Shown here piece after piece: positions 28,253-59,466 of a stretch of 59,466 nucleotides of DNA (position 1 is the stretch's first letter; each line of letters begins with the position of its first letter). The notes beneath the pieces were generated by a model. It ran no database searches, was not told the origin of the DNA, and saw only the letters and a list, made by a program, of their open reading frames with translations. Origin of the DNA: a candidate division WOR-3 bacterium (lineage in GTDB: Bacteria; Hydrothermota; Tepidihabitantia; Tepidihabitantales; Tepidihabitantaceae); the NCBI GenBank assembly GCA_026397595.1, contig JAPLUO010000197.1:1-59466 (forward strand), in the 5' to 3' direction. A program made the translations under genes and the position numbers.

Positions 28253-29539
28253 ATGACGAACCCACCCGAGCCCGCAATGTCGTTGGAGCAGGCCTACGAT
28301 AATCTCAACCCGACTGTCCCCCTGGAGCATGACAGCGAGTTCCTCGTGAAGGAGCTGTACGGCGAGTTCTGCGACACTGTGAGAGACCGGTTGCTCGTGG
28401 GCAAGTCCAGCCGCTCCAAATTGCTCTTGTCCGGCCACATCGGTTGCGGCAAGTCTACACTGCTCAATGTCATTGAGTGCGACCCCAAGGTCGCCCAAGC
28501 ATTTCTTGTTGTCCGTTGCAGCATCAAGGAGTTCGTGGAGCCGAATGAGCTGGAGCATATCGATCTCCTGTTGGCCATCGCACTCACCGTTGTAGATGCG
28601 GGGCACGAAGCGGGCGTCAAGCTCGACACGGGCACGGGCAAGAGGGTGGTCGAGATGTACAGGGAGCTGCGAGGGCTACTGGTGCACACGAAAGCCACGC
28701 AGAGCACCCGGAAAGCAGCCGCGTCCGCGAGTGCAGGGGTGGGGCTGCCCAAGGCGCTCGCCTGGCTAAGTGCGGACTTCAGGGCTGAGTACAAGTATCA
28801 GGATGAGTTCCGTCGTGAGGTCAGGGAGCATTTCCGTCCGCGACTGACGGACTTCATCAAGACCATCAATCTCCTGCTGGATTCAGTGACGGTGAGACTC
28901 GCGGGCAAGGAGTTGCTGGTTCTCGTGGATGATACCGACAAGCCGGTGGCCGATACCGCCCGGACGCTCTTCGGTACCTACGCAGGACAACTGGCCCAGC
29001 CCAACGCAAGCATCGTATACGTGGTAGACACGTCCGTGTCGTGTTTCGAAGAATTCCCGGCCATCAGCAATCGACTCGGTGGTGAGGAGTTCTTCCCTGC
29101 GGTTATCGTTCAGCCAGAGGGTAACAACCCGAGGACGCCGCGGGAACGGGTGCTCTGCGACCTGCTGCGCAGGCGGGTTCCTGCGAGTGTCATCCCGGAC
29201 GAGCATCTCCTACGGTTGGCTCGACTGAGCGGCGGTGTCGTACGGGAACTGCTGAGACTGGCTCAGCATGCCGTCTTCTTTGGTCGAGGTCGGGTCACGT
29301 CAGACGACATAACGCGTGCCGAGACCAAAGTATTCAACAGCTTCAACTTCGATGCCTCGGACGTCAAAGTCCTCAAAGCAGTTCTCAAGGACAAGACCTG
29401 GCTGCCGACGGATGAAATAGAGAAGAAGTCGTTCTTCAGGCTGCTCTTTTGGACTGCGCTCTTCCAGTACCGAAACGGCGACCGGAAATGGCACCGTCCG
29501 AACCCCATCTTCATTCCTTGGCTGCAAAAGCTCAGCTAG
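28253..29539 (+). CDS. Orc1/Cdc6-like AAA+ P-loop ATPase with winged-helix-like C-terminus
   Basis: Walker A GHIGCGKST, Walker B LLVLVDDTD, the sensor-2-like segment LSGGVVRELLRLAQHA...VTSDDITRAE, and a C-terminal segment of about 80 aa. Confidence 0.7.
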   Translation: MTNPPEPAMSLEQAYDNLNPTVPLEHDSEFLVKELYGEFCDTVRDRLLVGKSSRSKLLLSGHIGCGKSTLLNVIECDPKVAQAFLVVRCSIKEFVEPNELEHIDLLLAIALTVVDAGHEAGVKLDTGTGKRVVEMYRELRGLLVHTKATQSTRKAAASASAGVGLPKALAWLSADFRAEYKYQDEFRREVREHFRPRLTDFIKTINLLLDSVTVRLAGKELLVLVDDTDKPVADTARTLFGTYAGQLAQPNASIVYVVDTSVSCFEEFPAISNRLGGEEFFPAVIVQPEGNNPRTPRERVLCDLLRRRVPASVIPDEHLLRLARLSGGVVRELLRLAQHAVFFGRGRVTSDDITRAETKVFNSFNFDASDVKVLKAVLKDKTWLPTDEIEKKSFFRLLFWTALFQYRNGDRKWHRPNPIFIPWLQKLS

Positions 29540-31770
29540 AGCTCGGGCAGCGGCGTGAACTCGACGACCTGATTCGCAGGCTGCGCCTGCACCTCGGGCG
29601 CGGCGGCATCTTCATTCTCGAAGTCAAGGATGACGCGACGCTGACGGTCGTACGCGAGCGCATCCGGGTCGAACTGGGCCATGTCGAATGGCAGGAACTC
29701 GGATTGAGTGACGACCCGATAGCCGAGGCGCTGCGGCTGTTGAGGTCGGGTGCGACACCCGACGCAGTTTTCACCGTGAACCTGCGCGGGCTAGATGAAA
29801 AGCGCGAGAAGCGCACACTCGTCAACCTGAACACCCGACGTGAGTATGTTCCTGAACGGAGTATCCTGCTGCTGCTCTGGTGCCGACCCGGACAGATGTC
29901 CCGCGTGTCCGATATCGCCAAGGACTTCTGGAGTTTCCGGACCGACGTGGGCCGGTTCAGCGTGATGCCGGACCACACTGCCGAGAAGATGCTCGGTCTA
30001 GCCGCAAGGGAGCTAGAGATTGCGGAGGCGCGAGCCCTGCTCGAACGGGTCGAGCGCGACAGTAAAGCCGCTCCATCAGTGCTGCCATCAGTCCATTTCC
30101 GGTTGGGCGACCTGTTGTCCGACGCCGGTCGGCCGGATGAGGCGCTCGATCACTATCTACCCGCGGTAGACGCGTACCGCAGGCTCGACGACAAGCGGAA
30201 CCTTGGCGCGGTCCTCGGCAACATCGGGAACATCTATAGTGCCAAGGGCGAACTCGACAAGGCTCTCAAGTTCCATGACGAGGCGCTGGCAATACACCGC
30301 GAAGGTGGGTATCAGCAGGGCGTGGCGGATGACCTCGGCAACACCGGGAACATCCACAGCGCCAAGGGCGAACCCGACAAGGCGCTCAAGTACTACGAGG
30401 AGGCGCTGGCGACACATCGCGAAATCGGGCATCAACAGAGCGTGGCGAGCGACCTCGGCAACATCGGGAACATCTACAGCAACAAGGGCGAACCCGACAA
30501 GGCGCTCAAGTACTACGAGGAGGCGCTGTCGATACATCGCGAAATTGGGTATCAGCAGGGCGTGGCGGACCAGCTCGGCAACATCGGTAACATCTATAAC
30601 GCCAAGGGTGAGCCCGACAAGGCGCTCAAGTACTACGAGGAAGCGCTGGCCATGGACCGCGAAATTGGGTATCAGCAGGGCGTGGCGAGCGACCTCGGCA
30701 ACATCGCGAACACCTACAGCAACAAGGGTGAAACCGACAAGGCGCTGAAGCACTTAGAGGAGGCGCTGGCCATAAGCCGCGAAATCGGATATCAGCAGGG
30801 CGTGGCGACCCATCTGGGCAACATTGGGCTCATCTACAGCGACAAGGGTGAACCCGACAAGGCGCTGAAGCACTTAGAGGAAGCGCTGGCGATTAACCGC
30901 GGAATTGGGCATCAGCAAGGCGTGGCGATCGACCTCGGCAACATCGGGAACATCTACAGCGACAAGGGCGAACCCGACAAGGCGCTCAAGTACTACGAGG
31001 AAGCGCTGGCGATTGACCGCAAAACTGGGTATCAGCAGGGCGTGGCGACCCAGCTTAGCAACATCGGGCTCATCTACATCGCCAAGGGCGAACCCGACGA
31101 GGCGCTCAAGTACCATGTGGAAGCGCTGGCGATGGCCCGCGAAATCGGGCATCAGCAAGGCGTGGCGGACCAGCTCGGTAGCATCGGGAACATCTACCGC
31201 GCCAAGGGCGAACTCGACCAGGCGCTCAAGCACTACGAGGAAGCGCTGGCGATAGACCGGGAGATCGGGTACCAGCAGGGCGTGGCGAGCTGCCTCGGCA
31301 ACATCGGGCTCATCAACATCGCCAAGGGCGAACCCGACAAGGCGCTCAGGTACCATGAAGAGTCGCTGGCGATTCACCGCGAAATCGGGTACCAGCAGGG
31401 CGTGGCGACCCAACTCGGCAACATCGGGCTCATCTACATCGCCAAGGGCGAACCCGACAAGGCGCTCAAGTACTATGAGGAAGCGCTGGCGATAGACCGG
31501 GAGATCGGGTACCAGCAGGGCGTGGCGACCCAGCTCGGCAACATCGGGCTCGTTTTGACGGACATGGGGAGGCTGGAGCAGGCCGTGCCGAAATTGGTGG
31601 AGGCGTTGGGCGTTTTTCGGGCCATCGGTTTGGCTGACGGCCCCGCGCAGGTGCTGACCGGGTTGGTCCGGTGTGGAGACAAGCTTGGCCGGGCACGGGT
31701 CCAGGAACTGCTCAAGGACGCGGGACTGGATGTCGAGGGCATTGCCAATCTGCTGAAGTTGGTGGACTAG
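29488..31770 (+). CDS. TPR-repeat protein (unassigned ~200-aa N-domain + 12-13 tandem 40-aa TPR units)
   Basis: Repeats of the form LGNIGNIYSxKGEPDKALKYYEEALAIxREIGYQQGVAxx. The start is ATG 29488 (or 29449), which overlaps the ATPase gene by 52 (91) nt. Confidence 0.8.
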   Translation: MAPSEPHLHSLAAKAQLELGQRRELDDLIRRLRLHLGRGGIFILEVKDDATLTVVRERIRVELGHVEWQELGLSDDPIAEALRLLRSGATPDAVFTVNLRGLDEKREKRTLVNLNTRREYVPERSILLLLWCRPGQMSRVSDIAKDFWSFRTDVGRFSVMPDHTAEKMLGLAARELEIAEARALLERVERDSKAAPSVLPSVHFRLGDLLSDAGRPDEALDHYLPAVDAYRRLDDKRNLGAVLGNIGNIYSAKGELDKALKFHDEALAIHREGGYQQGVADDLGNTGNIHSAKGEPDKALKYYEEALATHREIGHQQSVASDLGNIGNIYSNKGEPDKALKYYEEALSIHREIGYQQGVADQLGNIGNIYNAKGEPDKALKYYEEALAMDREIGYQQGVASDLGNIANTYSNKGETDKALKHLEEALAISREIGYQQGVATHLGNIGLIYSDKGEPDKALKHLEEALAINRGIGHQQGVAIDLGNIGNIYSDKGEPDKALKYYEEALAIDRKTGYQQGVATQLSNIGLIYIAKGEPDEALKYHVEALAMAREIGHQQGVADQLGSIGNIYRAKGELDQALKHYEEALAIDREIGYQQGVASCLGNIGLINIAKGEPDKALRYHEESLAIHREIGYQQGVATQLGNIGLIYIAKGEPDKALKYYEEALAIDREIGYQQGVATQLGNIGLVLTDMGRLEQAVPKLVEALGVFRAIGLADGPAQVLTGLVRCGDKLGRARVQELLKDAGLDVEGIANLLKLVD
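30190..31560 (+). repeat. 120-bp tandem coding repeats (TPR units) of high nucleotide identity
   Basis: Twelve consecutive units, each starting GGCAACATCGGG.... They generate antisense and off-frame shadow ORFs. Confidence 0.9.
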
Positions 31771-31850: not shown

Positions 31851-31892
31851 GGCGCAGAAGTCAAGGAGGCGGGGCGCATGCCATGTGTTCTT

Positions 31893-31920
31893 GCCGATTT
31901 CCGATTGGCGATTCGGGCGA
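31893..31920. repeat. heptamer array (GCCGATT TCCGATT GGCGATT ...)
   Basis: The 7-nt period is visible by eye. It leads into the 24-bp array. Confidence 0.6.
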
Positions 31921-31969
31921 AGGCTCCGGGGAAGGCCGCGGGGAAGGGCCGGGTCAAGGTATGGGGCAG

Positions 31970-32190
31970 GAGTTGGGGGAAGAGTTGACCCAAGAGTTGG
32001 GGGAAGAGTTGACCCAAGAGTTGGGGGAAGAGTTGACCCAAGAGTTGGGGGAAGAGTTGGCCCAAGAGCTGGGGGAAGAGTCGGCCCAAGAGTTGGGGGA
32101 AGAGCTGACCCATGAGTTGGGGGAAGAGTTGGCCCAAGAGCTGGGGGAAGCGCTGGCCCAAGAGTTGGGGGAAGTCTTGGGGGAATGGGG
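31970..32190. repeat. 24-bp tandem repeat, ~8.5 units (GAGTTGGGGGAAGAGTTGACCCAA)
   Basis: Near-perfect units with an internal 12-bp sub-period (GAGTTGGGGGAA / GAGTTGACCCAA). It is open in frames on both strands, so coding status is unknown. Confidence 0.9.
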
Positions 32191-32401
32191 GAGGGGAGTT
32201 TCGGAAAGGCTGACTAGTGAATTGAGACTGCCGTAGTTAGGCGGCGGACGGGCGCGGCAGAGTTGTATCCTATCACTAAACTCCCGGCTTGGGGAGCTGG
32301 TAGCTGAATGATTCTAGCATACCGGACGTAACGCCAGCGCAGTAGATCGGTTAAGTCATTTGCGGCCGAGAGCAATTCAAGGGTAGTGGTCGCCCCCTAA
32401 G

Positions 32402-32701
32402 CAGCTTTCGAGTTAGCTTTCGAACAAGCCTTGAATGGTGCTCTGAAATGAGCTTTAAGTCCAGCTTTCAGAAGAGCTTTGTCGTGTGCTTTCACTGAAG
32501 CTATGAACTGAGCGATGGAAGAAGCGATGGCCTGAGCTTTGAGGCGAGCGATGCGCTAAGCGATTGAACGAGCTTTGGACTGAGCTTTGAGAGGTGCTTT
32601 GAAATGAGCTTTCGAGTGAGCTCTTGAATGAGCCTTCGATGGAGCTTTCCGGCGAGCTTTCCAGGGAGTTTCCGAGGGAGCTCTCAAGAGAGCTTTGGCG
32701 G
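32402..32701. repeat. 25 consecutive 12-bp units in perfect register, consensus RAGCTTTNNNNN
   Basis: For example GAGCTTTGAAAT GAGCTTTCGAGT GAGCTCTTGAAT GAGCCTTCGATG GAGCTTTCCGGC GAGCTTTCCAGG. There are no indels over 300 bp, and the region is visibly more AT-rich than its flanks. Confidence 0.85.
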
Positions 32702-32743
32702 GTCGCGGACGGTACCGCGCCGACGGGAGTATAGCGTTCGGGG

Positions 32744-32771
32744 TTGACCTGAATCGGGAATCGAATAGATT
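32744..32771 (+). promoter_or_regulatory. sigma70-like promoter (TTGACC-16-TAGATT), leaderless relative to GTG 32777
   Basis: The -10 ends 5 nt before the GTG. Confidence 0.5.
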
Positions 32772-32776
32772 GAGGA

Positions 32777-33373
32777 GTGATTGGCAGGTTTCTGTTCCGC
32801 TCGCGCGGGGTCATTGGACTGGCCGCGTTCGTCGTGGTGTTCTGGCTGGCAAGGCCGACCGTCGGGTCGTGCTCTGCCGGCCTCGCGTTCGTGCTGGCCG
32901 GGTTGGCGGTGCGGTTCTGGGCTTCGGGCTACATCGGGATTGAGGGCCGGGCGCGGGAAATCGGCGCGAGTCGGAGGATTGCGAGCGGGCCGTATCGTCT
33001 GCTGAGACATCCACTATACATCGGGAACTTCCTGTTGGTGGCGGGGATGGTTATCGCGCTGCGGCCTCCTTTGTTGCTGATGGCTGTCGTACTGGTGGGG
33101 TTTTGCGTGGAGTATGCGGTCATCGTTGTTGAGGAAGAGCGGGATTTGTCACGAGGGCGAGGTCAGAGGCTAGAAGCTAGAAGGCAGAATGCAGAAGTGC
33201 TGAGGCAAGAAGCCAAAAGCCAAGAGCCAAAAGCCAAAACTGCGAATGGCGATGGGCGAGAGGCGAATGGCGAGCAGTTCACCGTTGGACGCGCCATGTG
33301 CGAGTGGCGGACGTGGGTGGTGACTGGCGTGGCGTTCGGGCTTGCGGTTGCCAAGGCGGCAGCGAGGAGTTAG
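32777..33373 (+). CDS. isoprenylcysteine carboxyl / phospholipid methyltransferase-family membrane protein
   Basis: GPYRLLRHPLYIGNFLLVAGMVIAL motif. The C-terminal third carries a heptamer-array-encoded insert (RGQRLEARRQNAEVLRQEAKSQEPKAKTANGDGREANGE). Confidence 0.7.
   Translation: MIGRFLFRSRGVIGLAAFVVVFWLARPTVGSCSAGLAFVLAGLAVRFWASGYIGIEGRAREIGASRRIASGPYRLLRHPLYIGNFLLVAGMVIALRPPLLLMAVVLVGFCVEYAVIVVEEERDLSRGRGQRLEARRQNAEVLRQEAKSQEPKAKTANGDGREANGEQFTVGRAMCEWRTWVVTGVAFGLAVAKAAARS
33162..33273. repeat. heptamer array, ~16 units, in frame inside the ICMT-like gene
   Basis: GCTAGAA x2, GCAGAA-type x2, AGCCAAA/AGCCAAG x4 and NGGCGA-type x5, read in 7-nt steps. Confidence 0.8.
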
Positions 33374-33450
33374 GAGTTAGGTGTTAGGAGTTAGGAGACA
33401 GGAAGCAGCGGAAGACTGCTAACCGCTAACTCTTAACTGCTAACTCTCCC
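33367..33450. repeat. inverted heptamer arrays (GAGTTAG-type then CTGCTAA-type) filling a convergent intergenic spacer; possible bidirectional terminator
   Basis: Twelve units in all. The two arms are about 80% complementary over about 30 nt. The TAG stop of the ICMT-like gene (33371-33373) lies in the first unit. Confidence 0.75.
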
Positions 33451-34863
33451 TCACCGCCGGGGCAGGATTTCGAACTCGGCGGTCAGGGAGGCGGAAATGG
33501 ACGGATGGGAGACATCGCATAAATCCTTGACGCGGCTGACCAGCAGGTAGTGGCCGGGTTTCAGGTCCATGGTGTGGATTCGCTCGACCGCGACGCCGGT
33601 CCGGCCGGGACCGGTGATGGAGCGGCTCGAGACTGGCAGGATTGCTTTCTCGCGGGTTTCGCGCTCGACCAGTTCGTAGGTCGCCTGTACGTCATGGCTG
33701 CCCGCCGAGTACGTGGCGAGGTGGTAGATCTCATAGAGGACATAGAATGACTGCCCGCTTCGCACGCGGGGCACGACCAGCGGGACTGCCCGAGCCCAGT
33801 CGAGGCGGCCGAACTGCGGGCTCTGGGGCGTCGAGTCAACCAGCGAGTAGAAAAGCACGTCAGATACCGGTTGGTCGCGCCGGGAGTAGTCTATGAGGTT
33901 CAGGTTCTGAACGCGGCGGGACGCGGTCTGGCCGCCGTCGGCAATGGCCGTGACGGTTACGGTGTAGATGTCGGCAGGCAGGTTGAAAACCTCGCGGCCT
34001 ACGGCGAACTCGACCACGGTCGTGTCCGGCGGCATCGCGCAGCTTACCCATGATTCCCGGTGAGCCGGCGTGCCCTTGTCCCGGGGAGCGAGGTCAATCG
34101 CGACGTTGATGAGAGGCTGGGTCTGGGACGGGAATGCGGCCATGATCGTCCGTAGCGGAATCCCGAACGCGAGTTCGACTTCGACCGAGTCGGCGTGCTG
34201 CCCGAGCCGGCCGAGCGATACCTCTAGTCCAAGGGGCCGGGCGTCCTTTGTGATGGCGGGCGCGGAACGACCCAGGTCCACCGGTTCAAGCGACGGCATG
34301 ACAGCGCTGCGGCCGTAGCGGCTTTCGCCGACCTGTTTGTACGCGGTGCCGGTGCGGACGAAGTCGAACTGGCGACCGAGGGAGTCGTATGACCAGATTT
34401 CCGCCGGGTTGACATAAATGCGGCTGGTTTCGGTCTCTATGGCGTGCGGTTCGTATTGCTCGCGGCGGGCCGGGCCGTAGCGGATGTAGGTGCGGACCCG
34501 GTCGTCGTTCAGCAGGTCGGTCGCGCCGAAGAAGGTCCGGGCCTGAAGCGCGCGCTGGTGGTAGAAGGCAGAGGGAGAAGGGAGGAGGGAGTCGGGAGTA
34601 GGGTTCAGGCCGGGAGGAAGATTGCGCCAGAACCAGTCAAGGTATTCGGCCCGGCCGCGGGCCGTGCTCGACGATGCGTATTGCTGGGCCGCGTTCGGGG
34701 CAATCGCTGCAAGCACGAGATAGTTGAGTTTGTCGTCGTCAGAGAGCGAGTCAGCGGGGGACAACTGTCTGACCTGGCCGCAGGAGGACAGCAGGAGAAT
34801 GCAGAATGCAGATTGCAGAATGCAGATTGCAGACTGCAGACCGCGGGGTTCCGGGTTAGTCAT
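33451..34863 (-). CDS. secreted lipoprotein, possibly GWxTD-domain-like
   Basis: The N-terminus RGLQSAICILQSAFCILLLSSCG is a signal peptide plus lipobox. AEYLDWFWRNLPP...RVRTYIRYGPA is weakly reminiscent of GWxTD proteins. Confidence 0.5.
   Translation of the reverse strand: MTNPEPRGLQSAICILQSAFCILLLSSCGQVRQLSPADSLSDDDKLNYLVLAAIAPNAAQQYASSSTARGRAEYLDWFWRNLPPGLNPTPDSLLPSPSAFYHQRALQARTFFGATDLLNDDRVRTYIRYGPARREQYEPHAIETETSRIYVNPAEIWSYDSLGRQFDFVRTGTAYKQVGESRYGRSAVMPSLEPVDLGRSAPAITKDARPLGLEVSLGRLGQHADSVEVELAFGIPLRTIMAAFPSQTQPLINVAIDLAPRDKGTPAHRESWVSCAMPPDTTVVEFAVGREVFNLPADIYTVTVTAIADGGQTASRRVQNLNLIDYSRRDQPVSDVLFYSLVDSTPQSPQFGRLDWARAVPLVVPRVRSGQSFYVLYEIYHLATYSAGSHDVQATYELVERETREKAILPVSSRSITGPGRTGVAVERIHTMDLKPGHYLLVSRVKDLCDVSHPSISASLTAEFEILPRR
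34791..34849. repeat. heptamer array (GCAGAAT/GCAGATT x6) encoding the signal-peptide core
   Basis: GCAGAAT GCAGATT GCAGAAT GCAGATT GCAGACT GCAGACC at 34801-34842. Confidence 0.85.
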
Positions 34864-34881: not shown

Positions 34882-36237
34882 TTACAGCATCGGAATCTTG
34901 ACGCCCTGGGTGCGGGCGACTTCGATGGCGTCGTCGTACCCGGCGTCGGCGTGGCGGGCGATTCCGGTGCCGGGGTCGTTCAAGAGCACACGCTTCAGCC
35001 TTTCGTCCATCTCAGTCGTGCCGTCGCAGACAATGACCTGGCCCGCGTGGATAGAGTAACCGATGCCGACGCCGCCACCGTGGTGAATGGAAACCCATGA
35101 CGCGCCCGAGGCGACGTTGAGCATGGCGTTGAGCAGGGGCCAGTCGGCAATCGCGTCAGAGCCGTCTTTCATTGCTTCGGTTTCACGGTTGGGTGACGCG
35201 ACTGAGCCGGTGTCAAGGTGGTCGCGGCCGATGACTATCGGCGCGCTGATTCGCCCCTCGCGCACGGCGAGGTTGAAGGCCAACCCGGCTTTGTCGCGTT
35301 CGCCAAACCCGAGCCAGCAGATGCGGCTGGGCAGGCCCTGGAACGGTATCTCGGCGCCGGCCCTCTTTATCCAGTTGACAAGTGCGGTGTTGTTCGGGAA
35401 GAGGTCGCAGACAAGCCGGTCGGTCTCGGCGATGTCTTTCGGGTCGCCGGAGAGCGCGGCCCAGCGGAACGGCCCCTTGCCCTGGCAGAACAGCGGACGG
35501 ATGTAGGCGGGAACGAAACCGGGGTACTTCCAAGTGCCGATTGACGATTGGCGATTGGCGATTGGCGAGGTGGGGTTGCGGATTTCGGACTCGGGGAGGA
35601 AGCCGCCCTCGACTGCTTTGCCGCGCAGGTTGTTGCCGTAGTCGAACGTTACCGCGCCCATTGACTGGAGCGCAAGCATCAGGCGGACGTGTTCGGCCAT
35701 CGTGCGAAAAGACGCCTGCTTGTATGCGGCCGGGTCCTTACGGCGGAGTTCGAGCGCCTGCTCGAACGACATGCCGCTCGGCACGTAGCCGTTCAGTTCG
35801 TCATGGGCCGAGGTCTGGTCGGTGAGCAGGTCGGGCACGACTTTGCGCTCGACCAGGCGCTTAAGCAGGTCAACGATGTTGCCGCACCAGGCGAAACTGG
35901 CCGCCTGCTTATGGCTCTTCGCGTCGAGGGCCCGGTCAATAGCCTTATCAAGGTCAGGGATACTCTCGTCGAGGTAGCGGGGCTTCTTGCTGGCCAGGCG
36001 TCGGGCCACGCGGGCCGGGTCGACCTCTGCGCCGAGATAGGTCGCGCCGGCCATGGTCGCGGCCAGGGGCTGGGCGCCGCTCATGCCGCCGAGCCCGCCG
36101 GACACGACCAGCCGGCCCGCGAGGTCAGGAGTCCCGAAGTGCTTCCTGCCCGCGGCAACAAACGTCTCGTGCGTTCCCTGCAGGATACCCTGGGTGCCGA
36201 TGTATATCCACGAGCCCGCGGTCATCTGGCCGTACAT
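34882..36237 (-). CDS. hutU: urocanate hydratase, C-terminal 451 aa (gene interrupted by in-frame TAG at 36259-36261)
   Basis: [43 protein letters not shown] and [18 protein letters not shown] motifs. Confidence 0.9.
35537..35592. repeat. heptamer array (GCCGATT GACGATT GGCGATT GGCGATT ...) in frame inside hutU
   Basis: It encodes ...[16 protein letters not shown]..., an insert just before the conserved [13 protein letters not shown]. Confidence 0.8.
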
Positions 36238-41973: not shown

Positions 41974-44100
41974 ATGGCGCGTGACGCATTGCGCATGACG
42001 CCAGCCGCCGCCGGCCTGAAGCGTGAAGCGTCGGGCGTAGAGCGCTACTGCAACGTCGCGATACCCCATACCCGGCTGCACGAGCTGACCTACGAGTTCG
42101 AGCCGGAACGCTTCCTCGAACTTGCGCCCGGCGCGTGCGTGCAGGTCCGCCTGCGTGGGAAGAAAGCCAAAGGTCTCGTGCTCGAAGTCCTGGCCCGCAG
42201 CCCGGTGCCAAAGACACTGCCGGTCGAGAAGCTGGTCGAGCCGCGGTTGGTCTCGGAGGAGCTTCTGCGCCTGCTGCGCTGGGTCGGCGCATACTACTTT
42301 GGCCGGATGGGCGCAGTACTCGGCATGGCCCTGCCGCGCGGCATCTGCGGCCACGGACTCAGAAGAGGGGCGAGGGGCGGTGAACGAGCGCTTAGTGGAA
42401 GACGGCCGGTTGTTGTCTCCGACCTTCATCTTTCATCCTTCATCTTCCCTCCTTCTTTCTCCGTGAACGTCCATACCGGTTCGGGCTCGCAAGAAGACGT
42501 CGTGGCCGGCTTCGTCGGTGCGGGGCTTGAGCGCGGGACGGTGATAGTCTTGATGCCGGAGTCCGAGACCGGCGTATGGGCGGGCACGCTACGGGCGAGG
42601 CTGGGAATCGAGCCGGTTCTTTACCACGGCGACCGGAAGGCGTCGGAACGGAAGAGCGTCTGGCGCGAGGTGCGCTCAAGCGAGCGCATGTTGGTTCTTG
42701 GTGTTCGTTCGGCCGTGTTCGCTCCGGTGCCGGACCTTGCCGGCGTCGTTGTGATAGATGAGCACGACAAGGTCTTCAAGGAAGAGCGGCATCCGCGGTT
42801 CAATGCCCGGGACGTGGCTATTGCCCGGGCCCGACTCGCCGACTGCCCGGTGCTGCTCTGCGACCCGACCCCGTCGGCCGAGACCTGGCTGAACCTGCGC
42901 AACGGACAGTACCAGATGGTGCAAAGTCCCGCCGCAAAGTCACAAGGGGAAAGTCCCAAGTCTGAAGTGGAAGGTACAAAGTCTGAAGTGCAAAGTCCCG
43001 CCGCAAAGTCACAAGGGGAAAGTCCCAAGTCTGAAGAGGAAAGTCCCGAATCACAAGTGGAAAGTGCCAAGTCCCGAGGGGAAAGCACCAAGTCCAACTT
43101 GTCCATTTCCCCTTTCCACTTCGTCATTTCCGGCTCCCCGCCTGATACCCTCGTCGTTGACATGCGCAAGCATCGGGGCGAGGTGCTCGCGCCGGTGCTG
43201 GTGAATGAGCTGAAAGAAGCCCGCGCTGCCGGCGAGTCATCGGTGTTGTATATCAACCGCCGGGGACTAAGCCGATACGTCGCGTGCCGTGACTGCGGGA
43301 GTCCACTCCTGTGTACGGACTGTGGAGTCTCGCTCGTGCTCTATTCCGGTGGCAACCTCTGTTGCCGCTACTGCGGCAAGACCAGCACCGCACCGGAGAC
43401 GTGCCCAGCATGCGGCAGTCCTGACTTCCGGCTCAAGGCGCCGGGCATCGAGATGGCCGCGCGCGAAGTGAGCCGGCTGTTGCCGGACGCAAATGTCTTG
43501 ACGGTGCTCACCGAATCCGTTCATCGTTCTTCCCCTGAACCCGGGTCGGTGGTCGTCGGCACGCGTGCGCTGTTCGGGGTTCACTGGCCGGAGCGGGTGA
43601 GGGTAGTTGCTGCCCTGTCGGTTGACGACGACCTGTGCCTGCCAGATTTCCGGGCAAGGGAGCGGACGTTCCAGGTGCTCTCAGAACTGTCCCGGCGCGC
43701 GGCAGCGCATGGGGCTACGCTTGTGCTCCAGACCCGTCGGCCCGACGACCCGGCGGTGCAGGCCGCGACCGCGGGAGATGTGGCGCGTTTCCTTGACCAG
43801 GAATTGAAACTGAGGGAGGAACTGGAGTTCCCGCCCTATCGGCGGCTTGTGCTCATCGAGCTGAGCGCTGCGAGCGAGTCCAAAGCAGCGAGGCACGGAG
43901 AAATGCTGTGTCGAAAACTGGGGCGGGTTCAGGGTGTGGAAGCGATGGGCCCGGTACCGGTGCGCGGAAGAACGAATACCGTGCAGGTTCTCGTCAAGGT
44001 CGCCCGCAACCTCAGGCTGGACCGATTAGTGACCCTGAAACAGCTTGAGTCCGACGGCGTCAGGGCCAGGGTCGACGTGGACCCTTTGGAGACAGTGTAG
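41974..44100 (+). CDS. priA: primosomal protein N' (PriA) with degenerate helicase motifs and two repeat-encoded inserts
   Basis: CNVAIPHTRLHELTYEF N-terminus, a Cys-rich zinc region (CRDCGSPLLCTDCGVSL...CRYCG...CPACGS) and LYINRRG. Walker A reads HTGSGSQEDV and motif II reads IDEHD. Confidence 0.85.
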   Translation: MARDALRMTPAAAGLKREASGVERYCNVAIPHTRLHELTYEFEPERFLELAPGACVQVRLRGKKAKGLVLEVLARSPVPKTLPVEKLVEPRLVSEELLRLLRWVGAYYFGRMGAVLGMALPRGICGHGLRRGARGGERALSGRRPVVVSDLHLSSFIFPPSFSVNVHTGSGSQEDVVAGFVGAGLERGTVIVLMPESETGVWAGTLRARLGIEPVLYHGDRKASERKSVWREVRSSERMLVLGVRSAVFAPVPDLAGVVVIDEHDKVFKEERHPRFNARDVAIARARLADCPVLLCDPTPSAETWLNLRNGQYQMVQSPAAKSQGESPKSEVEGTKSEVQSPAAKSQGESPKSEEESPESQVESAKSRGESTKSNLSISPFHFVISGSPPDTLVVDMRKHRGEVLAPVLVNELKEARAAGESSVLYINRRGLSRYVACRDCGSPLLCTDCGVSLVLYSGGNLCCRYCGKTSTAPETCPACGSPDFRLKAPGIEMAAREVSRLLPDANVLTVLTESVHRSSPEPGSVVVGTRALFGVHWPERVRVVAALSVDDDLCLPDFRARERTFQVLSELSRRAAAHGATLVLQTRRPDDPAVQAATAGDVARFLDQELKLREELEFPPYRRLVLIELSAASESKAARHGEMLCRKLGRVQGVEAMGPVPVRGRTNTVQVLVKVARNLRLDRLVTLKQLESDGVRARVDVDPLETV
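42358..42465. repeat. composite heptamer array in frame in priA (purine-rich half then complementary pyrimidine-rich half)
   Basis: ...GGGCGAG GGGCGGT GAACGAG... is followed by CCTTCAT CTTTCAT CCTTCAT CTTCCCT CCTTCTT. It encodes ...RGARGGERALSG...SDLHLSSFIFPPSFS, directly N-terminal to the Walker A position. Confidence 0.75.
42919..43132. repeat. repeat block in frame in priA: 69-bp unit x ~2.6 built from AAAGTC-type heptamers, then a pyrimidine-rich inverted tail
   Basis: The copy at 42919-42987 is nearly identical over its first ~50 nt to the copy at 42988-43056. It encodes VQSPAAKSQGESPKSE... twice. The tail CCATTTCCCCTTTCCACTTCGTCATTTCC is the complement of the word GGGGAAATGG... seen at about 45065 and about 54844. 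Confidence 0.85.
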
Positions 44101-44216
44101 AGGACGAAGCCAGAAGCTAGATGCTAGAAGTCAGAAGTCCGGGCAGTCCTAACTGCTAACTTACTAACTGCTAACTTACTAACCGCTACCTTACTAACTC
44201 GCGGCGAAGCCGCGTC
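44101..44216. repeat. intergenic heptamer/15-mer array filling the priA / 44217 convergent spacer
   Basis: CAGAAGC TAGATGC TAGAAGT CAGAAGT, then (CTAACTGCTAACTTA) x3. It is flanked by the short inverted termini GTAGAGGACG / CGTCCTAC, which contain both stop codons. Confidence 0.8.
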
Positions 44217-54751: not shown

Positions 54752-57139
54752 CTAGTGTAGCAGGACCAGCTTGCTGGTCAAACTCCCTTGCGGCGTGGCG
54801 GAGCGAAGGAAGTAGGCGCCGGGAGGCAAGTCGGAAGTGGAAAGGGGAAATGGCGAAGTCGAGACCGTGAAGGACCGGACGAAGCGGCCGGAGGCATCGT
54901 ACAGGGACAACGATGAACGATGAGCGATGAACGATGAACCGGAGATGCGGACGGTCGCGCGGCCGTGGCAGGGGTTGGGGGATACGAAGAGGGAAGCGGG
55001 AGGAGGGAGGAGGGAGGAGTGGGGCTCGGCCAGTCCGACCCCGGGTGCGCGGAACAGAATGCTCGTGGAATCGGCCGGCACGTGCTTGAGCGGGTTGGCG
55101 TCGTACACGTATTGCTGGTACCAGTTCCAACTGCCGTCATCGCCCTGGATTCCGACGGTGCTGCTCGTGGCGTCGGCAGTAACATCGAGGTAGTTGAACC
55201 GGATATTGCCACTGTGTTCGAGGATGACTTGGAACGTGAGCAGGCCGGTGTCCGGCTGCGCTCGCGCAGCGCCGACCCATGTGTAGACTGCCTGTTCGCT
55301 CGTGAGGTTCTCGTAGACTTGTCCGGTGTCGCGGAGAGAGATGTCGTCCCAGAACGGCGCGATGATGTCGGTGATGTCCTCGAAGGGAAGCGGGAAATTG
55401 AGGCCGGCAATGCTGTTCGAGGTCTGGATGTAGCCGTTGGTGCATACGTGGACGCGGTCGGTCGAGTCCCCGTAGAAACGAAACTTGAACGGCAGGTGAC
55501 GGCGGGAAGTGCCCTCGTCCGGGTTCGGGTTCCAGTCGTCAATAACGGTTCCCCCGGCCGTGTCGAACCACGAGAACGCGACCGAGTCCGGTTCCTGTGA
55601 TGATTCGTAGACGTAACCGAACCCGTCCGGGTCGCTGCCCGTGGTCGTGCGCGAGCGCTGGCGGCTGGTGTCGTTGCCCGGGTTTTCGTCACCGGTGAGA
55701 CTGACAAAGGCAGTGGCGTGGAACACGGTCCGCTCCGAGGGCAGGAAGACGCCGAAGTCAACCTGTTGACTCGAGTCCGGCGCGAGTTGGAGCACGGTGT
55801 CCCGGTCGAATACCGGAGCCTGGGTGGCGGAGTCGAGAATCGTAATACGGGCAGTCGGGGTTTCGCCGGCAGCGCCGAAGTTGCGAATCAGCACCAGAAC
55901 CGGGCAGGGGTCGTCCGGGACCAACCTGCCCGAGGGCGAGACGACGCCGGCTACGCCGACATCATGCGCGAAACTCGTCATGTCGAGGTACTCAGTGGTC
56001 TGCGAGTACGGTGCGGCGCCGGGATAGCCGCCGGGGACGTAGATGCGACCGGCCGGGTCGGTGCCGGTGCCGAAGACGCTGGAGACCGGGTGCGGCTTGG
56101 CGGCGCGTTCGTGCCACAGGCCGGTGGCGGCCCCGACCGACCAGACGTCGGAGAGGGCGGAGAAGGATGAAGGCTGAAGGATGAAGGATGAAGACGGAAG
56201 GCCCAAGGCGGGATGCTGTATGCCGTATGCTGTATGCCGTATGCTCTCCGCGGCTGTGCCGTCCAGCGTGAGCCCGCCGATGACGTACAGTTCGTTGTTG
56301 ACCACGCCGCAGGCGGCGCGGCAGCGGCGGGGTCCGGGCAGAGTGTCGAGTTCGGACCAGTAGATAACCGTGGGACTTACGGGGTCGATGAGGCCCATCC
56401 ACGCCTTGTTGGTCGGACCCGAATCGGTCCAGCCGGTCGCGACCAGAATCGTGTCGCCCACGATGCCGCAGGCCATGGCGCCGAGCGGCTCAGGCAAGGG
56501 CGTTGCCGGGTACCAAGTGCTGGTCGCCGCGTCGAAGAACTTGACCGTATCGGTCGGCGGCATTGAGGGATGCCAACTGCCACCGCCCAGCGTGAAAATC
56601 AGGCTGTCGCGCCAGACCACGGTGCCGAAGTCGTACAGGCCTTCCGGCATGTTCGGGCCGACCGTCCACGTATCCGCGGCCGGGTCGTAGACTTCGACGT
56701 CGGCCAGCCCGGTGCCGAACGTCCGGCACCCGCCGAGCACATAGACCTGTCCCTTCACAGTGCACGCCTGTCCCAGCCCACGGCGCTGGGACATGGCGGC
56801 GCGCTGGCGCCACGAGTTTGGCTGCGGCGAATACTCGATGCACAGTCGTTCCATCGTGTCGGAAGGCGAACGCTGGCCGCCGATTGCATAGAGCCGAGGG
56901 CCGGAATCGGTCGAGGCGAACGCGGTCATGTGGAAGGCACGGGGACCGGGCAGCGGCGCGACTTCAAACCACTCGTTGCCGTCCGTCACCGAGCCCGCCA
57001 AGACGGTGCAATAGACCAGGACCAACGCCATCGCCAGGAAAATGGTGCGGCCCGAGTCGAGTCCGCTACATCCGCGCCGGTCCGTATTCTGCATCACAAG
57101 GTCGTGACTGAGGTTACCACTTGGTGTTGTAAGAGTCAA
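54752..57139 (-). CDS. Kelch-repeat protein with T9SS C-terminal sorting domain
   Basis: Kelch-like blades (RLYAIGG, VYVLGG, ELYVIGG) and the C-terminus LFVSPNPCHGRATVRI...LYDASGRFV...PPGAYFL. The likely true start is ATG 57094 (MQNTDRR..., signal peptide). Confidence 0.75.
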   Translation of the reverse strand: MTLTTPSGNLSHDLVMQNTDRRGCSGLDSGRTIFLAMALVLVYCTVLAGSVTDGNEWFEVAPLPGPRAFHMTAFASTDSGPRLYAIGGQRSPSDTMERLCIEYSPQPNSWRQRAAMSQRRGLGQACTVKGQVYVLGGCRTFGTGLADVEVYDPAADTWTVGPNMPEGLYDFGTVVWRDSLIFTLGGGSWHPSMPPTDTVKFFDAATSTWYPATPLPEPLGAMACGIVGDTILVATGWTDSGPTNKAWMGLIDPVSPTVIYWSELDTLPGPRRCRAACGVVNNELYVIGGLTLDGTAAESIRHTAYGIQHPALGLPSSSFILQPSSFSALSDVWSVGAATGLWHERAAKPHPVSSVFGTGTDPAGRIYVPGGYPGAAPYSQTTEYLDMTSFAHDVGVAGVVSPSGRLVPDDPCPVLVLIRNFGAAGETPTARITILDSATQAPVFDRDTVLQLAPDSSQQVDFGVFLPSERTVFHATAFVSLTGDENPGNDTSRQRSRTTTGSDPDGFGYVYESSQEPDSVAFSWFDTAGGTVIDDWNPNPDEGTSRRHLPFKFRFYGDSTDRVHVCTNGYIQTSNSIAGLNFPLPFEDITDIIAPFWDDISLRDTGQVYENLTSEQAVYTWVGAARAQPDTGLLTFQVILEHSGNIRFNYLDVTADATSSTVGIQGDDGSWNWYQQYVYDANPLKHVPADSTSILFRAPGVGLAEPHSSLLPPPASLFVSPNPCHGRATVRISGSSFIAHRSSLSLYDASGRFVRSFTVSTSPFPLSTSDLPPGAYFLRSATPQGSLTSKLVLLH
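54827..55025. repeat. three heptamer arrays in frame within the Kelch-protein sorting-domain region
   Basis: GAAGTGG AAAGGGG AAATGGC GAAGTCG; ATGAACG ATGAGCG ATGAACG ATGAACC; GGAGGGA x3. Confidence 0.75.
56151..56248. repeat. heptamer array, 14 units, in frame in the Kelch domain
   Basis: GGATGAA GGCTGAA GGATGAA GGATGAA ... TGCTGTA TGCCGTA TGCTGTA TGCCGTA, encoding HTAYGIQHPALGLPSSSFILQPSSFSAL on the minus strand. Confidence 0.85.
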
Positions 57140-57350: not shown

Positions 57351-59466
57351 ATGGCGAAAGCGACGCCTGCGTTTGAGCCCTACAGCCTGCAGCCGGTAAC
57401 CGGCGACGACCTCATCGGTCGGGATGCCGACAAGCAGGAGCTCCAGCGCCTGCTATCCGGCAGGGCCAAGGTCATCATCCTGACCGGCGAGCGCGGCATC
57501 GGCAAGACCTCGCTCCTGATGACCATTCCGTCCCTGGTCGAGAACATGGAGTGGATTCCGCAGTACAATGCGGCCACTGGCGGCGAGTTCTGGGAGACGC
57601 TTGGCGCCCAGCTTGCCGGTCTGCTTCATGCTGCAAAGAGGCTGGGTACATGGCGGTTCGATGGCCTTATCCCCATAGCGGATTTACTCGGGTTGCCGCC
57701 TGTGCCGTCATTGCCGGCGAAGCTATTCACCATTGAGCGTACCGGCGCAGCGGAGCCGGACTTCACCCGATTCCTCAAGGTCTGCGCCAAACTGAAGACA
57801 CGGCGCAAGCCCGTCTGTATCCGCGTCGAGAGCGCGCACCTCATGAAACCGACTGACCACGTCTGGCTGATGGAGTTGTGCCGGGAGTCCGGGAACCTAT
57901 TTGTCATCCTCGAAGCTCCCAGCAACGAACTGGACAAGCTAGATGGTTCGGTACGCAAGGCGGCGTCAGAGCTTCCTCTCGGGCGCCTCTCCGAGAAGGC
58001 TGCCCGCGAACTCGTGCAACGCGGCAAGTTCTTGGAGGACGGCGCGGTCAAGCGCATCGTCAAACTGGGTGAGGGTAGTCCATACTACCTGCAGAACGTC
58101 TGCTGGGTTCTCTGGCAGCGTCACAACTCGGGGCGGTCGGACGAAATCCCTCACATCATCGAGCATCTCGACGCGAGGGACCTGACCGACAAGCTGAAGG
58201 TCGTGCACGGCGAGGTTGTTGGAAGTCTGGGGCGGCCTGCAGCTCAACTGGCTCAGGACCTTGCCATCGTGCCGGCGGCGTTTACCGATGCAATCGCGCG
58301 ACAGTTCACGGGGCTGAAGGCTAAGGACTACGCCGGGGCGCTGCAAGAACTGCTCGACCGCTGCATCGCAGTACAAGAGGGTGAGACGATGCACCTGTAC
58401 CATGGCCGGTTCCGCGAACACCTGCGTGACGTCCAGCACCTGACTGCCGCGGAGGTCGGCAAGCGCTACCTGAAGGCGGCAAGAGCGCTGACCGCGGACC
58501 CGCCGGTTGAACTCGTCCTGCTCGAAGTCTACGACGACGCGCCGCTGCTCAACGAACTCGTTCGAGTCGTGACTCACCCGAATGCGCTGAGCAAACTGGC
58601 GTCCCGTCTCTATGTCAACGGTAGGACGGCCGAGGCACTGGCGACGTGGCAGCGGTTGCTGGACCTCGCCGGAACCGACAAGGTCTGGCGCTCCGCCGCC
58701 CTCGGCAACATCGGGCTCATCTTCAGCGACAAGGGCGAACCCAACAAGGCGCTCAAGTACCTAGAAGAAGCGCTGGCGATACTCCGTGAAATCGGGCATC
58801 AGCAGGGCGTGGCGAGCGCCCTTGGCAATATCGGGAACATCTTCAGCGACAAGGGCGAATCCGACAAGGCGCTCAAGCATCTCGAGGAAGCACTGGCGAT
58901 AGACCGGGAAATCGGGTATCAGCAGGGCGTGGCTGCCCATCTCGGCGACATCGGGCTCATCTTCATCGGCAAGGGCGAATCCGACAAGGCGCTCAAGTAT
59001 TTCGAGGAAGCACTGGCGATAGACCGTGAGATCGGGTATCAACTGGGCGTGGCGAACCATCTCGGCAACATCGGGAGCATCTACATCGGCAAGGGCGAAC
59101 CCGACACGGCGCTCAAGTACCTTGAGGAGGCGCTGGCGATACACCGTGAAATCGGGTATCAGCAGGGCGTGGCGAACGGCCTCGGCAACGTCGGCCGCAT
59201 CTACATCGACAAGGGCGAGCCCGACAAGGCGCTTAGGTACTTGGAGGAAGCGCTGGCGATAGGCCGCGAAATCGGACACCAGCAGGGCGTGGCGAACGGC
59301 CTCGGCGACATCGGGACCATCTACCGCGACAAAGGCGAACCCGACAAGGCGCTCAAGTACTTGGAGGAAGCGCTGGCGATAGACCGGGAAACCGGGCATC
59401 AGCAGGGCGTGGCGGCCCATCTCGGCGACATCGGGCTCATCTACCGCGACAAGGGCGAACTCGACA
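57351..59466 (+). CDS. STAND-like P-loop ATPase (Arch_ATPase/Orc-like) fused to a TPR array; 3' end beyond the window
   Basis: I translated this manually; it is absent from the ORF track because it has no stop in the window. It reads MAKATPAFEPYSLQPVTGDDLIGRDADKQELQRLLSGRAKVIILTGERGIGKTSLLM..., then GEGSPYYLQNV, and from about 58690 at least seven 40-aa TPR units. Confidence 0.8.
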   Translation, partial: MAKATPAFEPYSLQPVTGDDLIGRDADKQELQRLLSGRAKVIILTGERGIGKTSLLMTIPSLVENMEWIPQYNAATGGEFWETLGAQLAGLLHAAKRLGTWRFDGLIPIADLLGLPPVPSLPAKLFTIERTGAAEPDFTRFLKVCAKLKTRRKPVCIRVESAHLMKPTDHVWLMELCRESGNLFVILEAPSNELDKLDGSVRKAASELPLGRLSEKAARELVQRGKFLEDGAVKRIVKLGEGSPYYLQNVCWVLWQRHNSGRSDEIPHIIEHLDARDLTDKLKVVHGEVVGSLGRPAAQLAQDLAIVPAAFTDAIARQFTGLKAKDYAGALQELLDRCIAVQEGETMHLYHGRFREHLRDVQHLTAAEVGKRYLKAARALTADPPVELVLLEVYDDAPLLNELVRVVTHPNALSKLASRLYVNGRTAEALATWQRLLDLAGTDKVWRSAALGNIGLIFSDKGEPNKALKYLEEALAILREIGHQQGVASALGNIGNIFSDKGESDKALKHLEEALAIDREIGYQQGVAAHLGDIGLIFIGKGESDKALKYFEEALAIDREIGYQLGVANHLGNIGSIYIGKGEPDTALKYLEEALAIHREIGYQQGVANGLGNVGRIYIDKGEPDKALRYLEEALAIGREIGHQQGVANGLGDIGTIYRDKGEPDKALKYLEEALAIDRETGHQQGVAAHLGDIGLIYRDKGELD
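58690..59466 (+). repeat. 120-bp tandem coding repeats (TPR units), highly similar at nucleotide level to 30190..31560
   Basis: For example GGCGAACCCGACAAGGCGCTCAAGTAC...GAGGAAGCGCTGGCGAT recurs in both arrays. Confidence 0.85.

Follow-up and report, generated by a model that had tools for sequence, protein, structure and literature searches.

A 59,466-nt stretch of contig JAPLUO010000197.1 (positions 1–59,466; assembly GCA_026397595.1) from a candidate division WOR-3 bacterium, referred to here as the window, contains at positions 32402–32701 an array of 12-nt units built on the heptamer GAGCTTT. This array is very probably one copy of a lineage-specific, dispersed, non-coding element that occupies positions 32322–32701 of the window, and the comparison of copies leaves little doubt that the element consists of a leader of ~80–150 nt followed by ~21–24 head-to-tail 12-nt units and is confined to a small WOR-3 subclade. 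The element is previously undescribed; it belongs to the general kind of dispersed intergenic repeats and matches no named family, and full-text literature searches found no description of 12-nt arrays of such kind in WOR-3. The window copy is made of two parts:

32322–32401, plus strand: leader module of type A, defined by the gapless alignment of 11 full-length type A leaders
32402–32701, plus strand: array of 12-nt units of the GAGCTTT family, with the core RAGC(T/G)(T/A)T at unit positions 1–7 and a purine-rich half at positions 8–12

The array comprises 25 units of 12 nt with zero indels, which bears out the perfect register at these exact coordinates described by an earlier note made from the letters of this DNA alone. 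Position 3 of the unit is invariably G (25/25), C at position 4 and T at position 7 are each missing from one unit (24/25), and A at position 2 (22/25) and G at position 1 (18/25) are somewhat less constant, while positions 5–6 are TT or, in four units (AGCGAT; units 10, 11, 13 and 14), GA. A 36-nt higher-order repeat is visible in units 10–15. The last five positions, which had been thought to vary freely, are instead purine-rich and T-poor, with A at 2–3% at position 8, and are conserved position by position among the copies of the element. All nine occurrences of GAGCTTT in the window lie within the array, as do all 11 matches to AGCNNT triplets at 12-nt spacing, for which dinucleotide shuffles give an expectation of 0.01 in the window. 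Tandem Repeats Finder returns only fragments of the array (periods 12 and 24, 68–77% matches), because the units have diverged. The GC content is ~0.49 across the array vs ~0.62 in the flanks. A profile of the family (nhmmer) matches the window at 32414–32701 with E = 7.8e-80 and finds no second copy in it.

The family comprises 78 distinct leader-plus-array copies with 1613 units in total, collected from WOR-3 genomes and from metagenomes. It is restricted to five or six related WOR-3 metagenome-assembled genomes (MAGs) and to metagenomes from lakes, wetlands and sediments. When one genome per species was scanned for the exact pattern of three GAGCTTT at 12-nt spacing, arrays turned up on numerous contigs of five MAGs, which also encode the closest homologues of the methyltransferase downstream of the window array; a second, family-specific pattern was found on 17 contigs in three of those five MAGs and on one contig that is unrelated. 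In CAZQZR01 alone, at least 20 contigs have an array. Further array-bearing MAGs are CAZVCQ01, DDXO01, CAYOCZ01 and CAZSUX01, and WOR-3 genomes such as CP070834 and CP070705 are free of arrays. A scan of metagenomes (lake, wetland, sediment) added 69 further loci, with two copies on some contigs of 57–62 kb, and the density on long contigs is about one copy per 30–60 kb. The array reaches a contig depth of 300–580 in the lake metagenomes of the source, 20–40 times that of its flanks (~15). The copies are intergenic, with neighbouring genes in every orientation, and subfamilies of the array are common to different genomes. No orthologous copy of the window array was found; the nearest copy, that of locus L249 (86% identity), and the other close copies checked sit at other loci. 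No protein family recurs within 3–4 kb of 89 arrays, apart from a small protein at six loci. The MerR-like and AAA+/wH proteins of the window, suggested earlier as local binding candidates, lose their appeal when the array is seen as one of a dispersed family with unrelated neighbours.

No match to the element was present among the PLSDB plasmids, and viral contigs gave only weak matches (≤76 bits vs 262 for the window copy), which are assumed, uninspected, to be coding repeats. A 1-kb contig labelled Dehalococcoidales (L110, JAURWL010000029.1) carries a typical WOR-3-type copy, 78% identical to that of the window; the label is probably a binning error.

The phase of the units is preserved throughout the family. 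The core (RAGCTTT / AGC[TCG][TCA]T) occurs 1142 times in phase and once out of phase in the 78 arrays, so that the strict phase, taken as a real constraint in the earlier note, holds well beyond the window, and the loss of phase in other strains for which that note had allowed is seen nowhere. The number of units is also narrow, with 21–24 in 47 of the 56 complete arrays. An alignment of 25 arrays shows them to be homologous end to end; its internal gaps span 12 or 24 nt without exception, and particular whole units keep their array position across genomes, for example GTGCTCTGAAAT-GAGCTTTCAAAT-GAGCTCTTGAAC...GAGCTTTCCGGC. Pairwise alignment with cheap gaps was dropped as a measure of indels, as it introduces spurious compensating 1-nt gaps. 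Slippage of whole units would give gaps in multiples of 12, but it leaves the contrast between the core and the rest of the unit, and the missing small indels, unexplained. This contrast is evident in pairs of copies, where positions 2–4 and 7 differ in 0–4 aligned units per pair and positions 8–12 in 4–15. Over the 1613 units, four to five core positions are conserved at >90%, while neighbouring positions diverge by 30–40% between copies. The loci L215 and L217 have flanking proteins that are 48% identical and arrays that are 83% identical.

The constraint sits on nucleotides and not on codons, because the codon usage, the conservation at wobble positions, the substitution pattern, the starts and the stops are all unlike those of a gene. 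The kind of constraint had been left open between codon phase and a recognised spacing, and the data now point to the nucleotide level.

Conservation between copies is one-sided: upstream of the array it covers ~75–150 nt of leader, and downstream it stops within a few tens of nt; the extent 32402–32701 given earlier thus misses a conserved upstream leader of ~80–150 nt. Homology ends at the last unit or 0–50 nt beyond it, and a run of 7-nt repeats often follows. No terminal inverted repeats were seen at the ends of the element, that is, where homology stops on the leader side and at the last unit. The leaders fall into three types, of which type A is that of the window. Its consensus consists of (C)ATAAC, GGTT and AGGGGTCGCCC at invariant spacing, and the 11 full-length leaders of this type align over 80 nt with zero gaps, though the sequence between the blocks varies. 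The corresponding blocks in the window are CGTAAC (32327–32332), GGTTAAG (32349–32355) and GGTCGCCCCCTAAG (32388–32401), the last of which abuts the first unit of the array; BLAST homology of the window copy with other copies extends just 24 nt upstream of the array. The type B leader reads ..GGTT..CAATCTATATGTAGTGG..GGAACCACAATT..CCCGT..GGAGACCGCC.., and its alignments need small gaps corresponding to 1–2-nt indels. The type C leader contains a near-perfect 20-bp palindrome, ATATGTAGTATACTACATAT. In types B and C, GTAG followed by an imperfect palindrome recalls REP sequences; type A has no such feature.

The array is followed in the window by three features outside the element:

32702–32743, plus strand: spacer after the array, not conserved between copies
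32744–32771, plus strand: promoter-like site of the downstream gene, TTGACC-16-TAGATT
32777–33373, plus strand: gene of an ICMT/PEMT-like methyltransferase, PF04191 (4e-10) and PF04140 (1e-5)

The spacer contains a small inverted repeat, GTCGCGGACGGTACCGCG, with no T run behind it, and no terminator-like site was called there. The same promoter-like motif precedes the homologous genes in loci L001 and L005. The closest homologues of the ICMT-like protein, at 57–65% identity, are encoded in MAGs of candidate division WOR-3. The site upstream of the gene is occupied by arrays in the window and in L001, while L002–L004 have none at the same site.

The array overlaps an open reading frame (ORF) on the opposite strand:

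32455–32814, minus strand (frame -1): mechanical ORF of 119 amino acids with SSx[EQK] repeats, judged not to be a gene

This frame had been described as open throughout the array; it is in fact ended by a TAA at 32455–32457, in unit 5, and covers only 32458–32701, or ~20 of the 25 units. The accompanying judgement that it is not a gene, based on its start inside the ICMT/PEMT-like gene and its passage across the promoter-like site, is in agreement with the codon tests, and nothing marks the region as a decayed coding repeat of a recognisable gene. Protein coding on either strand was rejected on the stops, the starts, the codon usage and the substitution pattern. A minus-strand serine-rich protein made of S-S-x-(E/Q/K) tetrapeptides, in which the 12-nt phase would be codon phase, is very improbable, even though 16 of 27 copies have no stop in frame -1 anywhere in the array, this frame has the fewest stops of all six (0.67 per array), several type B copies remain open in it as far as the leader, and all indels are multiples of 3. 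The low number of stops arises because the core itself reads xAA-AGC-TCx in frame -1, and the column-shuffle z-scores for stop depletion are confounded by dependencies within the unit. The wobble base in the array frame goes against the codon bias seen in the genes of the genome (GAA 98% vs 39%, CAA 88% vs 24%, AAA 66% vs 19%), and GC3 is 0.57 vs 0.74. The near-invariant position 3 of the unit and the conserved position 6 fall on third codon positions, whereas no position of the x codon is constrained, and substitutions between close copies show no 3-periodicity. Met is absent from ~2300 codons and no start is conserved; for many copies, <60 nt separate the beginning of the open stretch from the array. 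Stops occur in 11 of the 27 copies, among them the window copy with two. The window ORF would start within the opposing ICMT gene, and it matches no Pfam family.

The same 12-nt pattern, GAGCTTTNNNNN, is found in other phyla, where on the same strand and in the same frame it encodes homogeneous tetrapeptide repeats (xESS, AKAP, SAES, LESS and others), mostly inside long ORFs. These coding repeats speak for a protein in WOR-3 by analogy; however, their ORFs are open over 264–3201 nt and their units are highly homogeneous, while the WOR-3 arrays fail the coding tests.

A second periodic array precedes the first one in the same intergenic region:

31896–32207, plus strand: second 12-periodic array with the 24-bp unit GAGTTGGGGGAAGAGTTGACCCAA, in the phase and orientation of the main array

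The phase shared by the two arrays, which the earlier note had pointed out, is confirmed by GAG at 31970 and 32450, the distance of 480 nt being 40 × 12 nt. The second array shows 91% matches at 12/24 nt, and the GAAGGCNCCGGG units at its start grade into GAGTTG units. Three frames are open through it, including a plus-strand ORF at 31883–32236 that reads (ELGEELTQ)n. No copy was found in other loci by BLAST at E <= 1e-20. The array is the younger of the two and, with its different core, seems to belong to a family of its own. It is preceded by heptamers (TTGCCGA and others) and by an ATGTGT motif that is reminiscent of the leaders of types B and C.

Several such array families with different cores share the architecture and the 12-nt period, with ~21–29 units each. 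In L001 and L005, the same intergenic space holds 12-periodic arrays with other cores (TCATSR, TAAS, GAGCAGCTCTCC-like), and L001 has a comparable pair of other-core arrays at the same place as the two arrays of the window. The leaders are partly shared as well: the type B motif also precedes a GTTGCGG-core array in L125, and the TAAS-core array of L001 has a leader that ends in CCCCTAAG. In L001, a 45-nt motif, TAATTCCGGGGACATAGYATTCAATTATGTGTCCGTCAAG, with an inverted repeat stands before each of the two arrays (1097–1140 and 1720–1765), and a related AATTCCGGGG...GGGGACATA motif flanks a AGATTGTCTCC-core array in L150. A 344-aa ORF runs on the minus strand of L001 (1193–2227) through both arrays and their spacer, and is taken as a by-product of the stop-poor minus strand.

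The RNA that the element might produce shows no sign of a conserved fold. The window has no match in Rfam 15, which includes CsrB/Rsm, at the gathering score, and permissive E-values gave only chance-level hits for the window region and three other copies. The fold stability of the element does not differ from that of shuffled sequences (z = -0.3 and -0.1 on the two strands). RNAalifold pairs only the palindromic cores of the arrays, giving 23 pairs, one of them with a single compensatory change; the type B leader has 12 pairs without covariation and the type A leader has none, and leaders in general give z ~0 on both strands. Hairpins picked by eye in type A leaders were dropped, since they fall in different alignment columns. 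A sigma-70 promoter in the leader was likewise rejected, the pattern TTGnCG-N16-18-nAnAAn being present in only some copies, and an alignment anchored on ATGTAG shows a conserved GGTT..CG.CAATCTAT upstream of the anchor and no -35/-10 pair at standard spacing. Contigs resembling the element, leader included, occur in three metatranscriptomes from different studies; these contigs are unstranded and shallow, and the evidence for transcription of the element is weak.

Among known systems, the BOX elements of Streptococcus pneumoniae (boxB, 45 nt) and the MIRU of mycobacteria (40–100 nt) are dispersed modular intergenic repeats. The element resembles them in its many copies, strictly intergenic location, lineage specificity, variability at orthologous sites and lack of a dedicated adjacent gene, and also in having a conserved end module beside an internally tandem-repeated one. 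It is multi-copy, intergenic, lineage-restricted and variable at orthologous sites as are BOX, MIRU and REP, which makes it one of their kind without a sequence relationship. The units of BOX and MIRU are few and variable in copy number, they have no sequence similarity to the element, and the element has ~23 half-conserved 12-nt units in a narrow range with no phase-breaking indel.

TIGR arrays are built of ~36-nt units with two alternating 8–12-nt repeats, two 9-nt spacers and box C/D motifs; they lie beside a tas gene encoding a Nop domain, usually have 5–15 units and come mostly from uncultured lineages (PMC12045711). They share with the element a long regular array in which short conserved and variable segments alternate, and which is conserved within a locus and different between loci. 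Membership in this class was rejected, as the element has a single 7-nt core every 12 nt and a 5-nt variable part that is kept between paralogues; no protein family recurs within 3–4 kb of the 89 arrays, whose neighbouring ORFs were not individually scanned for Nop domains. A CRISPR array was rejected on similar grounds, the unit being 12 nt (7 + 5) in place of repeats of 23–50 nt with unique spacers, and the 5-nt parts being shared between copies; no recurrent gene was found beside the arrays. ToxI, the RNA of type III toxin-antitoxin systems, has 2–6 repeats of ~36 nt (34–40 nt) directly upstream of toxN. It is similar in being a tandem-repeat non-coding RNA of which each unit binds the protein partner; a ToxI-like RNA was rejected, since the unit of the element is 12 nt, the repeats number ~23 and the downstream genes vary and stand in either orientation.

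Iteron centromeres (tubC, parC, the omega heptads) are single loci of 4–12 repeats beside a par operon on plasmids or phages, and the tubC of pBtoxis has 12-bp iterons. In tubC, TubR forms filaments and rings as it spreads over the blocks of direct repeats that make up the centromere (PMC6009700). The element is like them in its contiguous direct repeats (7–12 bp in the centromeres), in a constraint on both site and spacing and in the co-operative coating that it might support; a plasmid or phage centromere was rejected in view of dozens of chromosomal arrays with ~23 units, a polar leader and no recurring par genes.

CsrB and RsmZ are RNAs of 300–400 nt that titrate a protein with ~20 short motifs, in which GGA is displayed in hairpin loops at irregular spacing. 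Csr/Rsm RNAs have one to a few genes per genome and are present in Rfam. The likeness to them is the basis of the favoured working model, from which the element differs in its RAGCUUU motif, its exact spacing, its dozens of copies and the lack of detected conserved hairpins and of an Rfam hit.

The element is tentatively regarded as a periodic multivalent binding platform, with the plus-strand RNA as its likeliest form. The ~23 evenly spaced RAGCUUU sites would be read by a sequence-specific nucleic-acid-binding protein that occupies them, or polymerises along them, with a 12-nt step. The platform would be a plus-strand RNA transcribed from the leader into the array, largely unstructured and acting as a scaffold or sponge, CsrB-like but strictly periodic. 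Selection on the spacing of the sites would account for the absence of single-base indels, the narrow number of units and the retention of the core while the rest drifts. We infer transcription, its strand and the existence of the binding protein: RNA is preferred because of the one-sided leader, the purine-rich plus strand and the metatranscriptome hits, and an unstructured platform fits the absence of a conserved fold in the array.

Several observations weigh against this platform. No candidate binding protein is at hand, and no gene recurs beside the arrays. A sigma-70-like promoter lies upstream of a minority of the copies, which does not include the window copy, and no consistent terminator is found among the copies. 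The array drew no signal in three RNA runs from the sample of the window itself, and, the element being multi-copy, carry-over of DNA could explain the metatranscriptome contigs. The position-by-position conservation could partly reflect recent spread rather than selection. The main unexplained fact is that there are sister arrays in which the geometry is the same and the core is not: it weakens models with one binder per core, which look costly, and favours a geometric role or a mutational origin. Conversely, these families, with their own 4–7-nt cores, 12-nt period and related leaders, might together form a new class of arrays with dozens per genome, a reading that is quite unlikely. In that case a dedicated protein would either coat the transcript of each array or receive its processed products, and the 12-nt step would correspond to the footprint of a partner that polymerises or to a single turn of an A-form helix (RNA-RNA or RNA-DNA). 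Such a class, if real, would be comparable to CsrB sponges, ToxI and TIGR in its logic while being unrelated to all three.

The element could also be a selfish or neutral dispersed minisatellite, the analogue of BOX or MIRU, in which a non-autonomous leader spreads between intergenic sites together with an array that is generated and held in phase by whole-unit slippage or unequal exchange and has no cellular function. It is a possibility of some substance, if hardly a probable one. The many strictly intergenic copies in any orientation to their neighbours, their presence upstream of ICMT in the window and L001 and absence there in L002–L004, and the subfamilies common to different genomes are what such an element would produce; the genomes are full of other short tandem repeats (6, 7 and 12 nt) with drifting units, 7-nt repeats often follow the arrays, the 12-nt period is common to arrays of unrelated cores, and neither a consensus promoter or terminator nor a structure or a partner gene is present. 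Homogenisation or slippage alone, however, cannot hold four to five core positions above 90% while their neighbours diverge by 30–40%, and neutral decay should leave 1–2-nt indels, which the type B leaders need and the arrays do not have. The range of 21–24 units and an array 83% identical beside a 48%-identical flanking protein (L215/L217) are equally hard to reconcile with it. No transposase, terminal inverted repeats or target duplications were seen at the array loci, and the element is absent from the plasmid collection and only weakly matched in the viral one.

The conserved core at strict spacing is, on the other hand, the signature of iteron arrays, and the 23 tandem sites could be coated as double-stranded DNA at a 12-bp step, as centromere binders do on iterons, with a role in nucleoid organisation, as a roadblock or insulator, or in the regulation of nearby promoters. 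This is unlikely, even if it requires neither RNA structure nor a promoter and even if the cores contain the palindromes AGCT, GAGCTC and AAGCTT, the arrays of the window and L108 end 8–42 bp before the promoter-like site of a co-oriented gene, and the palindrome of the type C leader is of the kind bound by dimeric repressors. Sites in double-stranded DNA have no need of a polar element with a one-sided leader and a strand-asymmetric purine-rich half, and, with a 12-bp step, each site on B-DNA is rotated by ~50 degrees from the one before. The copies are chromosomal and numerous, and no gene, par-like or otherwise, is recurrent near them; many arrays face convergent genes, so that they are not systematically promoter-proximal; and the orientation of the arrays is not significantly biased relative to the local GC skew of the flanks (co-oriented in 18/27, 18 to 9). 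A decoy for restriction-modification or a methylation island based on AGCT was rejected, as AGCT is not notably avoided in the genome (observed/expected 0.77, compared with 0.40 for GATC). Finally, the transcript could be a precursor of very small RNAs, cut once per unit or every 24 or 36 nt and loaded into a protein, which is improbable. A leader followed by a regular array, a constant and a variable part in each unit, different cores with the same geometry in different arrays and the 36-nt higher-order repeat in units 10–15 of the window copy would suit a precursor, and RNase E prefers RN|WUU, which the GC|UUU of the core fits, as a lead only. TIGR arrays show that 8–12-nt repeats with 9-nt spacers can be functional guides (PMC12045711). 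The variable part of the element is just 5 nt and is conserved between paralogues, so that it is not acquired sequence; no effector or toxin gene is adjacent at any of the 89 arrays, and the units lack alternating edge and loop repeats.

The small proteins mentioned above (130–260 aa) are encoded divergently upstream of the arrays of L108, L207, L215, L217, L236 and L257. Their genes lie 100–300 nt upstream of the leader on the opposite strand, sometimes as two tandem paralogues, and the proteins contain a repeated ...YR.F/Y....L......G..L.......RKW...GL.PE.L... motif and belong to no significant Pfam family.

Tandem 7-nt repeats with drifting units (AGGAGTT, AGAATGC, AAGCCAA, CGATTGG, CTAACTG and others) occur throughout the window, with runs at 33165–33274, 33365–33447, 34563–34603, 34796–34840, 35538–35568, 44106–44199, 54909–55019, 56162–56245 and elsewhere. 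Intergenic heptamer repeats of this sort have been described in Beggiatoaceae, Cyanobacteria and Bacteroidetes (PMC4679880). Heptamers within genes add low-complexity inserts, as in the ICMT-like gene at 33165–33274, where the inserts of homologues differ in length. At 33365–33447, an AGGAGTT run is followed ~20 nt later by its reverse complement (CTAACTC/CTAACCG), and the two can pair in a long, imperfect hairpin. It lies between two convergent genes, the ICMT-like one and ORF 33451–34863, the N-terminus of which reads LQSAICILQSAFCILL. This hairpin may be a bidirectional terminator, and its heptamers are widespread, because the depth of metagenome contigs is very high there (up to 1388 vs ~15).

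Other features of the window include a strong under-representation of GATC (100 observed vs 252 expected, ratio 0.40), which suggests a GATC-specific restriction activity in the lineage. TPR_12 repeats of 120 bp (40 aa) are present in two genes, at 30213–31548 and 58697–59466, and are 84–85% alike within each set. The first of the TPR genes (29449–31770) overlaps the end of a gene for a P-loop protein without a Pfam family (28253–29539), the two forming a STAND-like pair. Tandem repeats of 21 and 69 bp (AAGTCACAAGGGGAAAGTCCC) lie at 42919–43094, inside a 708-aa ORF (41974–44100).

Almost all that is known of uncultured phyla such as WOR-3 concerns their gene content, and the non-coding side of their genomes is unexplored. 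The serine-rich ORFs that gene callers will report on the arrays described here are not to be annotated as proteins. A register kept to the single nucleotide over 300 nt and ~23 units, beside proteins that are <50% identical, is hard to obtain without a ligand that measures 12-nt steps. If the element is selfish, it provides an unusually clean natural case of phase-keeping in tandem arrays. If there is indeed a ligand of this sort, the element would represent a new system of protein-nucleic acid recognition, and perhaps an RNA or DNA of major regulatory or chromosome-organising importance in these bacteria.

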